Shown here piece by piece: positions 35,151-35,714 of a stretch of DNA of 50,705 bases. Both the position numbers and the translations under genes were made by a program. The stretch's first letter is position 1, and the number at the start of each line of letters is the position of its first letter. The stretch covers positions 1 through 50,705 of the IMG/VR virus record IMGVR_UViG_3300017785_002213. The stretch is one strand, 5' to 3'. The DNA comes from a virus (lineage: Duplodnaviria > Caudoviricetes). The notes beneath the pieces were generated by a model. It saw nothing but the letters and a program-made list of their open reading frames with translations, was not told the DNA's origin and searched no databases.

Positions 35151-35189
35151 CAGAAAACCAGTTGGACAAAAATCCAGCTGGTTTTTCTG
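35151..35189. terminator. Bidirectional terminator-like hairpin
   Basis: CAGAAAACCAG.TGGA / TCCA.CTGGTTTTTCTG between convergent units. Confidence 0.65.
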
Positions 35190-35680
35190 TTTACTAGTGA
35201 AACTGGTTTTGAACTAGTTCACTATCGCTTCCGCTTCGCATGGAAGCACCGCGCTTCACCAAGGTGAAGAACTGCGTTTTCGGCGGGGCCGAACCCGAGC
35301 GACAAGTCTCCCAAGTAAAATTGGGGAAACTTGTCGAACTTATTGTGAATCACACGTTTTCGTATGGTTCCTTCACCTTCGCTTAACAGTCCACGCCCAG
35401 CGGTCTTCCTTTACCTAGGCTAGTCTAATATCGTTGACTAACTGCAAGTCGCCCCGAAGGGCAGTATTAAGTTGGCAGGATAACAGTCACGGCAGCCATT
35501 CCAACTCCACTCCTTGGGCGACATTTGCAGACCTATGTCTCGGTGCGTCCTTCACGCATTCCCGTCGCTTACACGATCCGATGGTGGCAAAAGAAATTGG
35601 GCCTGTCGTAGCTGACGCACTACAACAGACCCATTTCTATTAAAGAAAATTGATCTCCTAAGCGCGTCAGAACTTCGGAT
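35190..35680 (-). ncRNA. Candidate large structured ncRNA (~500 nt)
   Basis: Own promoter, no credible ORF, many hairpins including GCCC-TTCG-GGGC, long-range pairing. Confidence 0.5.
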
Positions 35681-35686
35681 AAACGA

Positions 35687-35714
35687 AGCCTAGCGAAGCC
35701 AAAGGAGAAGTCAA
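35687..35714 (-). promoter_or_regulatory. Sigma70-like promoter for the candidate ncRNA
   Basis: TTGACT-N16-TAGGCT with an A-tract upstream. Confidence 0.55.

Follow-up and report, generated by a model that had tools for sequence, protein, structure and literature searches.

What is the function of a stretch poor in open reading frames (ORFs) that lies between two convergent genes of a tailed phage? We asked this question for the IMG/VR record IMGVR_UViG_3300017785_002213 (Duplodnaviria; Caudoviricetes), which has 50,705 bp with a completeness estimate of 96% and was analysed over its whole length (called the window below). The stretch in question, 35151-35714 on the minus strand, is named here the RNA cassette. 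An initial annotation had proposed that it is a novel large phage non-coding RNA (ncRNA), and this proposal agrees with what we found: conservation, covariation, conserved promoter-like and terminator sequences of its own, no conserved ORF and no Rfam match. We are highly confident that the region is a real, conserved and structured ncRNA gene of a new family, which we call type A. As a whole, it is probably best explained as a folded ncRNA gene cassette of ~530 nt (~35680 to ~35150, minus strand) with a leader switch. Type A is an optional module of a clade of aquatic tailed phages, located at the junction of a convergent small gene and an SF2 helicase gene.

Folding and covariation of the cassette

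The minimum free energy of the 564 nt was -224 kcal/mol against -169 ± 5.9 kcal/mol in shuffles (z = -9.39), and 0 of 100 shuffles folded as well. The antisense strand folded 30 kcal/mol worse, with z = -5.5. G-U was the commonest pair type at seven pairs. These G-U pairs, together with the strand asymmetry in folding energy, indicate that the fold is tied to the strand downstream of the promoter.

After pattern scans of further contigs had added copies, nhmmer counted 51 type A copies in viral, metagenome and metagenome-assembled genome (MAG) contigs, and 34 of them were distinct. These 34 sequences were aligned with MAFFT, and 97 proposed pairs in 16 helices were written onto the alignment. 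Standard pairs were present in 94.9% of the cells (97 pairs x 34 sequences). Two-sided changes occurred at 25 of the 97 pairs compared with 12.4 ± 1.9 in shuffles, and none of 500 shuffles reached 25. When the partners were slid by 1-3 columns, only 2-5 pairs had two-sided changes. Covariation, by which the initial annotation had proposed to judge the region, was thus found. Compensatory changes beyond controls and the lack of a conserved reading frame are two general marks of a structured ncRNA gene, and type A has both. In 49 of 55 pairs the core of the cassette also had a higher identity than the helicase gene, with a mean nucleotide identity of 85% compared with 72%.

The cassette consists of the following parts.

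35709-35714, minus: -35 hexamer TTGACT with an A-rich run before it; TTGAC is invariant in 34 of 34 aligned cassettes, and relatives have TTGACA
35699-35709, minus: spacer box, a stretch of the -35 and spacer that is complementary to the leader box (helix P0), from duplex energies
35687-35692, minus: -10 hexamer TAGGCT at a spacing of 16 nt; TAGATT in most relatives, T-A-N3-T in 34 of 34
35673-35688, minus: HP1, an inverted repeat CUUCG..CGAAG across the predicted start, with the 5' arm upstream of +1
~35680, minus: predicted transcription start (+1)
35675-35680, minus: 5' strand of P1, AUCCGA, at the predicted 5' end, with its partner at 35576-35582
35664-35670, minus: core of seg1, CUGACGC, which either sits in a small hairpin's loop or pairs with the apex of HP2
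35650-35659, minus: leader box AGGAGAUCAA, with the promoter spacer (P0) or the HP2 5' arm as partners, from constrained folds, duplex energies and column counts
35599-35632, minus: HP2, a 13-bp hairpin with loop GUGCGUCAG, which holds GCGUCAG at 35612-35618
35588-35598, minus: U-rich tract AAUUUCUUUUG, 3' of HP2; U7-8 in relatives
35576-35582, minus: 3' strand of P1, AUCGGAU, directly after the U-tract; the last stretch common to type A and to a second body type, type B (see below)
35278-35575, minus: conserved core of ~300 nt with at least 11 helices (B1-B13), which are helices 5-16 of the alignment
35451-35462, minus: UUCG/GCAA-capped hairpin in the core
35300-35336, minus: long hairpin in the core
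35190-35277, minus: variable 3' tail with three local hairpins, in a version common only to the window and L067, L069, L077 and L081
35153-35186, bidirectional: terminator hairpin just past the helicase stop, common to the cassette and the helicase gene

The two-sided changes were located in P1, the pair formed by seg1 and the HP2 apex (the kissing pair), HP2, and the core helices B1, B4, B6, B7, B8, B9, B11 and B13, and three of the 16 helices were invariant or changed on one side only. In all, covariation was seen in at least 12 helices. P1 has 7 pairs and was 100% paired, as AUCCAAU/AUUGGAU in relatives and AUCCGA/UCGGAU in the window, with an A-U to G-C exchange in the subgroup of the window (5 of 34); in type B its complementarity reaches 12 bp. 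The HP1 stem showed two-sided changes among relatives (CUCG/CGAG, CUUG/CAAG, CUUCG/CGAAG). HP2 was 98% paired, with two-sided changes at 4 pairs of the alignment, and a terminator scan predicted it as an intrinsic terminator with 15 pairs, 7 of them G-C, and the tail ATTTCTTTTG.

The single elements named by the initial annotation were all located on the minus strand where it had placed them: the promoter-like pair TTGACT-16-TAGGCT (35714-35709 and 35692-35687), the helices GCGAC/GUCGC, GCCC-UUCG-GGGC, GCCUAG/CUGGGC, CAUACG..CGUGUG and CGACAAGU..ACUUGUCG, and the terminator shared with the helicase. Its long-range pairing AAGGUGAAG/CUUCACCUU was present in the window's subgroup (5 of 34), but was broken without compensation in 2 of those 5. 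Another candidate long-range helix, between GGAGAUCAAU in the leader and AUUGAUCUCC in the 3' tail, was rejected: the tail is a local hairpin, and L008, L009 and L049 were uncompensated.

Contigs on 35326-35659, from relatives 90-97% alike, were present in all 4 metatranscriptome runs examined (3 studies), which had been picked for containing words of the stretch and which gave assembled contigs without strand or ends. One contig of 282 nt crosses HP2 and its U-tract. The bins without cover (35027-35270 and 35698-36246) are uninformative. We regard these RNA-library contigs as weak evidence of expression. DNA runs with shares of 0.26-0.50 were labelled lake, marine, aquatic, fungus and riverine, and these labels are no evidence of habitat. 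The label freshwater was given to one run only, X1, which is possibly the source sample.

Kissing pair and proposed leader switch

A kissing architecture had been proposed for the first two hairpins, and both were located: the first with its loop CUGACGC (35670-35664), and the second, of 13 bp, with a complementary loop. Between seg1 and the HP2 apex at least 7 contiguous Watson-Crick complements were present in 34 of 34 sequences, and the complement had a mean length of 8.7 nt in cognate pairs and 5.3 nt in non-cognate pairs. The helix covaries, with two-sided changes at 4 of 6 pairs. There were 14 distinct kissing strings, with about 11 core versions among the 34 sequences, such as CUGACGC/GCGUCAG (window), CUAGCCG/CGGCUAG, CUUGCGG/CCGCAAG and GGACGAGA/UCUCGUCC. 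Within the leader, variation is highest at the kissing bases; L032 and L024 have cores that are 98% identical and kissing strings that differ.

The nearest-neighbour energies of 31 distinct leaders were compared by constrained folding in two states. In the T state, a small hairpin holds seg1 in its loop and HP2 is formed as terminator. In the AT state, one long hairpin pairs seg1 with the HP2 apex and the leader box (AGAUC and variants) with the HP2 5' arm. For RNA from +1, AT minus T was +3.2 kcal/mol on average (range -1.0 to +8.2; window 0.1). For RNA from -35, it was +13.7 kcal/mol on average and at least +5.4 in 31 of 31 leaders, so T is favoured there. In silico the leader has one feature expected of an attenuator, mutually exclusive helices of comparable stability that involve a terminator arm. 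All AT strands are synthesised before the HP2 3' arm.

The spacer box is present only in transcripts arriving from upstream. When the RNA starts at -35, the transcribed promoter spacer pairs with the leader box and the 3' part of seg1. The cognate spacer-box duplexes had a mean of -14.0 kcal/mol, compared with -8.7 for shuffled spacers and -10.3 for non-cognate ones, and in 31 of 31 distinct leaders the duplex was below its own shuffled mean. This complementarity is kept via different sequences in different subgroups.

From these energies we propose that the 110-nt leader is a conformational switch, a plausible model that we hold tentatively. In a transcript from its own promoter, the AT hairpin, about as stable as HP2, would form first, so that transcription continues into the core. 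P1 would come next, between the 5' end and the stretch past the U-tract, and HP2 could re-form with its loop kissing the seg1 loop. In a transcript from the upstream operon, the promoter spacer and HP1 would occupy the leader box and seg1, and HP2 would form and terminate. The proposed input is thus the origin of the transcript, that is, whether the promoter spacer is in the RNA or not, as the spacer-box duplexes suggest. The simplest reading is that HP2 ends upstream transcripts, because the cassette replaces the empty-site terminator and no terminator precedes its promoter. The cassette would supply the terminator of the upstream operon while yielding an RNA with a defined 5' end, and the core would most likely act in trans as a stable RNA during infection. 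A literature search did not find transcript origin described as the input of an attenuator. A leader peptide inside HP2 (AUG GGU CUG UUG UAG) was considered and rejected, as it has no Shine-Dalgarno sequence at working distance.

Several points weigh against this reading of the cassette and its leader. A scan for the sigma-70 consensus found 0 promoters in the window, whose own -10 is weak; the candidate promoter of the cassette was missed because TAGGCT is a poor -10. Helices 13-16 were only 80-88% paired on the alignment, partly because MAFFT places the indels of one subgroup inconsistently. The spacer-box test reached p<=0.05 individually in only 16 of 31 leaders, and the switch is modelled from nearest-neighbour energies and from related, non-independent sequences. 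Three kinds of contact would explain the covariation of seg1 with the HP2 apex equally well: an antiterminator helix, a kissing complex and a contact between molecules. The RNA-library contigs have no transcript ends, come from preselected runs and may reflect DNA carry-over.

There is a minor but real chance that type A is a new class of large phage RNA in which a fast-diversifying, self-matched kissing code acts between molecules, in homo-oligomers or as a self/non-self tag. The RNA may then form RNA-only homo-oligomers as in ROOL/GOLLD, or may serve the lineage-specific regulation of its own copies in co-infection, and at least two unrelated structured RNA bodies may use the coded leader as a plug-in platform for their expression.

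It is unlikely that the leader is a specificity-coded regulator in trans, where nascent seg1 of the same cassette would be kissed by the HP2 loop of either the mature RNA or a short one terminated at HP2, which would force termination and set the dose. The kissing versions would then keep co-infecting relatives from cross-regulation, like P4 CI, P1/P7 c4 and plasmid copy-control RNAs. About 11 kissing versions among sequences otherwise 90-99% alike would fit with this, and so would HP2 as a canonical terminator ~90 nt from the predicted start; T and AT are nearly iso-energetic, and therefore a small input could tip the balance. A precedent from P4 is given in PMC4825925. However, variability is expected anyway, as seg1 and the loop pair only mutually, while the HP2 arms are constrained by two partners. 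There was no sign of a short RNA accumulating, no match to a C4 or ctRNA family, and no third complementary site with up to 1 mismatch in the records of 5 relatives (two of them 92-95% complete). In the window itself, the 12 nt AGCGCGUCAGAA at 28279-28290 (plus strand; codons 2-5 of the ORF 28276-28539) are the exact complement of seg1. This match is probably due to chance, because the five relatives' records have no equivalent third site.

That the kissing pair is an intermolecular contact building homo-oligomers, as in ROOL, GOLLD and OLE, is decidedly unlikely in our view. Type A is large, ornate and phage-borne, without a co-travelling partner protein gene, and the kissing loop of ROOL, first read as tertiary from covariation, proved to be quaternary, i.e. 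intermolecular (PMC12286853). Type A, however, resembles ROOL and GOLLD neither in sequence nor by model. Pairing within and between molecules looks the same in sequence, but pairing in cis is favoured because the partners are ~50 nt apart within a small domain closed by P1.

The initial annotation had also suggested trans regulation through GUUCUUCAC (35272-35264), which is the exact complement of 21879-21887. This idea was not sustained. The match of the 9-mer is at chance level, with 2 matches where 0.49 are expected and with as many in 10 of 100 shuffles; it sits in the 3' tail version present in only 5 of 34 members; and the leader at 21854 has an internal complement of its own. That leader, of the replication module (21810-22003, plus strand), has a promoter-like TTGACC..GATAGGGT and a fold z of -3.6. 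Its hairpin loop GUGAAGAA is complementary to UUCUUCAC within the long hairpin that follows and that has its end at the start codon, and this architecture resembles the leader of the RNA cassette. No relatives were found of the 259-aa gene behind it. A CsrA-type sponge with GGA motifs was set aside: judged by eye, the number of GGA motifs seemed close to that expected by chance.

Distribution and occupants of the junction

The flanks of the cassette in the window are as follows.

33472-35130, plus: SF2 helicase gene, the convergent flank, with Pfam Helicase_C and ResIII and PHROG 62
35724-35981, minus: 85-aa gene (p85), the upstream flank, of no known family, with no terminator between it and the cassette promoter

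A protein search with the helicase retrieved 39 viral loci, and 38 of them, which have DNA beyond the helicase, were used as informative relatives. Type A, homologous over its whole length, was present in 10 of the 38. Four relatives had type B, which has the same promoter and first ~150 nt and then an unrelated ORF-poor body of ~450 nt. Five had a protein gene at the junction, in all cases a nuclease of the HNH or endonuclease-VII type. In the other 19 the junction was empty, with ~70 nt past the small gene and a different terminator; the final terminator was counted as a part of the cassette because of this difference. A further 33 loci had p85 and/or helicase neighbours wherever flanking DNA was present.

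The nuclease genes and type B bodies at the junction were as follows.

L003:4030-4908, plus: nuclease gene
L018:5685-6611, plus: nuclease gene
L010:5702-6322, minus: nuclease gene
L034:5724-6344, minus: nuclease gene
L021:5580-6290, minus: nuclease gene
L005:5612-6282, minus: type B
L026, L035 and L040, minus strand of each locus: type B

The nucleases belong to PHROG 1035 and 374, and two have a weak match to Pfam HNH_4. L010 and L034 retain the 3' tail and terminator of the RNA cassette. The junction looks like a hotspot for free-standing homing endonucleases, because all five protein-coding occupants are of the HNH/EndoVII type. The type B body, in front of the same terminator as type A, is rich in GAAA-capped hairpins and has a fold z of -3.8. 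A search with type B found only the same four viral contigs, and Rfam gave only noise.

The core of L004 is 98% identical to that of L024, and their helicase genes are 63% identical. L008 and L009 have leaders that are 95% identical and cores that are 75% identical. Leader, core and flanks thus differ in their pattern of similarity, so the parts recombine as modules.

No second copy of the cassette was found in the window by nhmmer, and blastn and tblastn of cultured phage records gave no match to the element or the helicase. An exact search of viral contigs for the 34-nt hairpin gave 0 matches. A scan of genome contigs gave 2 matches, L059 and L060. The latter, from Thermoleophilaceae, was dropped as a chance match since it is absent from the nhmmer results. 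L059, a contig of 51.8 kb in a 'Ca. Woesearchaeota' MAG, carries a type A RNA with the same phage genes as neighbours; we take it for a mis-binned phage contig and not for evidence of host.

Around the cassette, most neighbouring proteins of the phage lack a PHROG assignment. A PD-(D/E)XK or Cas4-like exonuclease (PHROG 2139; 37966-38928, minus strand) is encoded in the operon that lies upstream of the RNA. Most relatives have a small conserved hairpin, UAUCGNAACGAUA, with an A-run between the stop of the p85-type gene and the cassette promoter or the empty-site terminator. It is missing from the window's subgroup (window 35715-35723).

It is very unlikely that the cassette is merely a long structured 3' untranslated region, or terminator region, of the upstream operon or the helicase gene with no function of its own. 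HP2 and the final hairpin are terminator-like and no terminator lies between the 85-aa gene and the element, which would fit, but a single 45-nt terminator suffices for relatives with an empty site. Moreover, the ~300-nt core past HP2 is covarying and under more constraint than the helicase gene, and the cassette has its own conserved -35 and -10, with an unrelated second body swappable behind the same leader.

An element acting at the DNA level, such as a single-strand origin, a packaging site, or a target or relic of a homing endonuclease, is extremely unlikely. Free-standing HNH/EndoVII genes have a hotspot at this site (5 of 5 protein-coding occupants), and the identity of the cassette is decoupled from its flanks, which suggests recombination (L004 and L024); both would suit such an element. 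But a site that is missing in half of the relatives is not an essential origin or packaging site, the seven G-U-dominant pairs and the better fold of the sense strand, by 30 kcal/mol, make the fold strand-specific, and the element is present in RNA-library assemblies. The structured single-strand origin, which the initial annotation had offered as its alternative, is therefore not supported: the RNA is accessory, because 19 of 38 syntenic relatives lack it and another 5 have endonuclease genes in its place.

The region had been described as ORF-free. ORFs of 33-69 aa do exist in the window, but none is conserved, and from member to member of the 34 the longest ORFs lie at different places and on different strands. 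Just one sense ORF recurs, of 47 aa with an ATG start, and it does so in 11 of 34 sequences; its copy in the window ends after 8 codons because of 1-2-nt indels. A conserved small ORF that would explain the region was not found among the 34 sequences. With these varying positions and strands, the truncation in the window and substitutions that are compensatory within stems, the chance that the ORFs of 33-69 aa or the 47-aa ORF make the element a gene for a small protein is extremely small.

Relation to known RNAs and significance

Searching the whole window with Rfam 15 at the gathering score gave 0 matches, including ROOL, GOLLD, OLE, HEARO, group I/II, RNase P and tmRNA. At E<=10 on 34900-36000 there were three noise matches only (HTT-AS1_3, ctRNA_p42d and rli43), far below the gathering score; ctRNA_p42d, for example, had E=5.9 and 15 bits against a gathering score of 50. 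ARAGORN found 0 tRNA or tmRNA genes in the window. The Rfam check suggested by the initial annotation thus gave no family match, which is consistent with novelty. A literature search found no description of a type A RNA. A 2023 catalogue of viral RNA candidates from IMG/VR (PMC10690425) has 10,006 entries of 29-151 nt, and a type A fragment may perhaps already be there as a 'DNAVirus_X' motif.

By kind, the nearest systems are ROOL and GOLLD; by the logic of the leader, they are the P4 CI RNA, classical attenuators and plasmid kissing-loop control RNAs. Like ROOL and GOLLD, as described in PMC12286853, type A is a phage-borne accessory RNA of several hundred nt with many covarying helices and a covarying loop contact, and without a conserved partner protein. 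Unlike them, it matches neither covariance model at E<=10, has a smaller core (~300 nt), is not near tRNA genes, and has a dedicated promoter-leader-terminator module that is common to a second body type. We know of no function established for ROOL and GOLLD so far.

The P4 CI and P1/P7 c4 RNAs share with type A a hairpin loop complementary to a site in the same transcript (34 of 34 sequences in type A), and a pair that differs between related phages yet stays matched. For P4 CI RNA, a link to premature termination is described in PMC4825925. In contrast to the C4/CI RNAs, type A has no C4-family match and no second target site before protein genes in the records of 5 relatives, its leader is followed by a structured RNA and not by replication or antirepressor genes, and there is no sign that its phage is temperate.

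In trp-type attenuators (1:2/2:3/3:4) and in lambdoid PR'-tR', helices that exclude one another form a chain up to an intrinsic terminator near the promoter, and the type A leader is predicted to be similar. In Stx phages, a promoter-proximal terminator yields a short RNA (PMC7547250). Different from trp-type attenuators and PR'-tR', the type A leader has no leader peptide with a Shine-Dalgarno sequence and no evident protein site of the Q/qut kind. In ColE1 RNA I/II and pT181-type attenuation, loops of 6-8 nt set specificity groups, and terminator choice is linked to their kissing. The partners in those plasmid RNAs are on overlapping opposite strands, whereas those of type A are on one strand of one transcript. 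The phi29 pRNA, of 174 nt, forms the packaging ring of protein-primed phi29-like phages by loops that pair between molecules; it is also a phage RNA in which complementary loops covary among relatives, and type A has no Rfam match. A purine-type kissing-loop riboswitch was rejected, as Rfam gave no aptamer match, variation peaks at the kissing bases, and no protein gene lies downstream.

Large and intricately folded ncRNAs are, to our knowledge, rare, and those understood so far have sophisticated functions. With type A, a new and well-supported family joins them, and its natural variation is unusually informative: presence and absence alleles at one site, two bodies behind one leader, and one contact in about eleven matched versions. 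Since its promoter and terminators are of a kind usual in bacteria, the leader model is open to in vitro tests with the RNA polymerase of E. coli. The cassette suggests a simple way in which an RNA gene at the end of an operon may stop the transcripts of the operon and pass its own.

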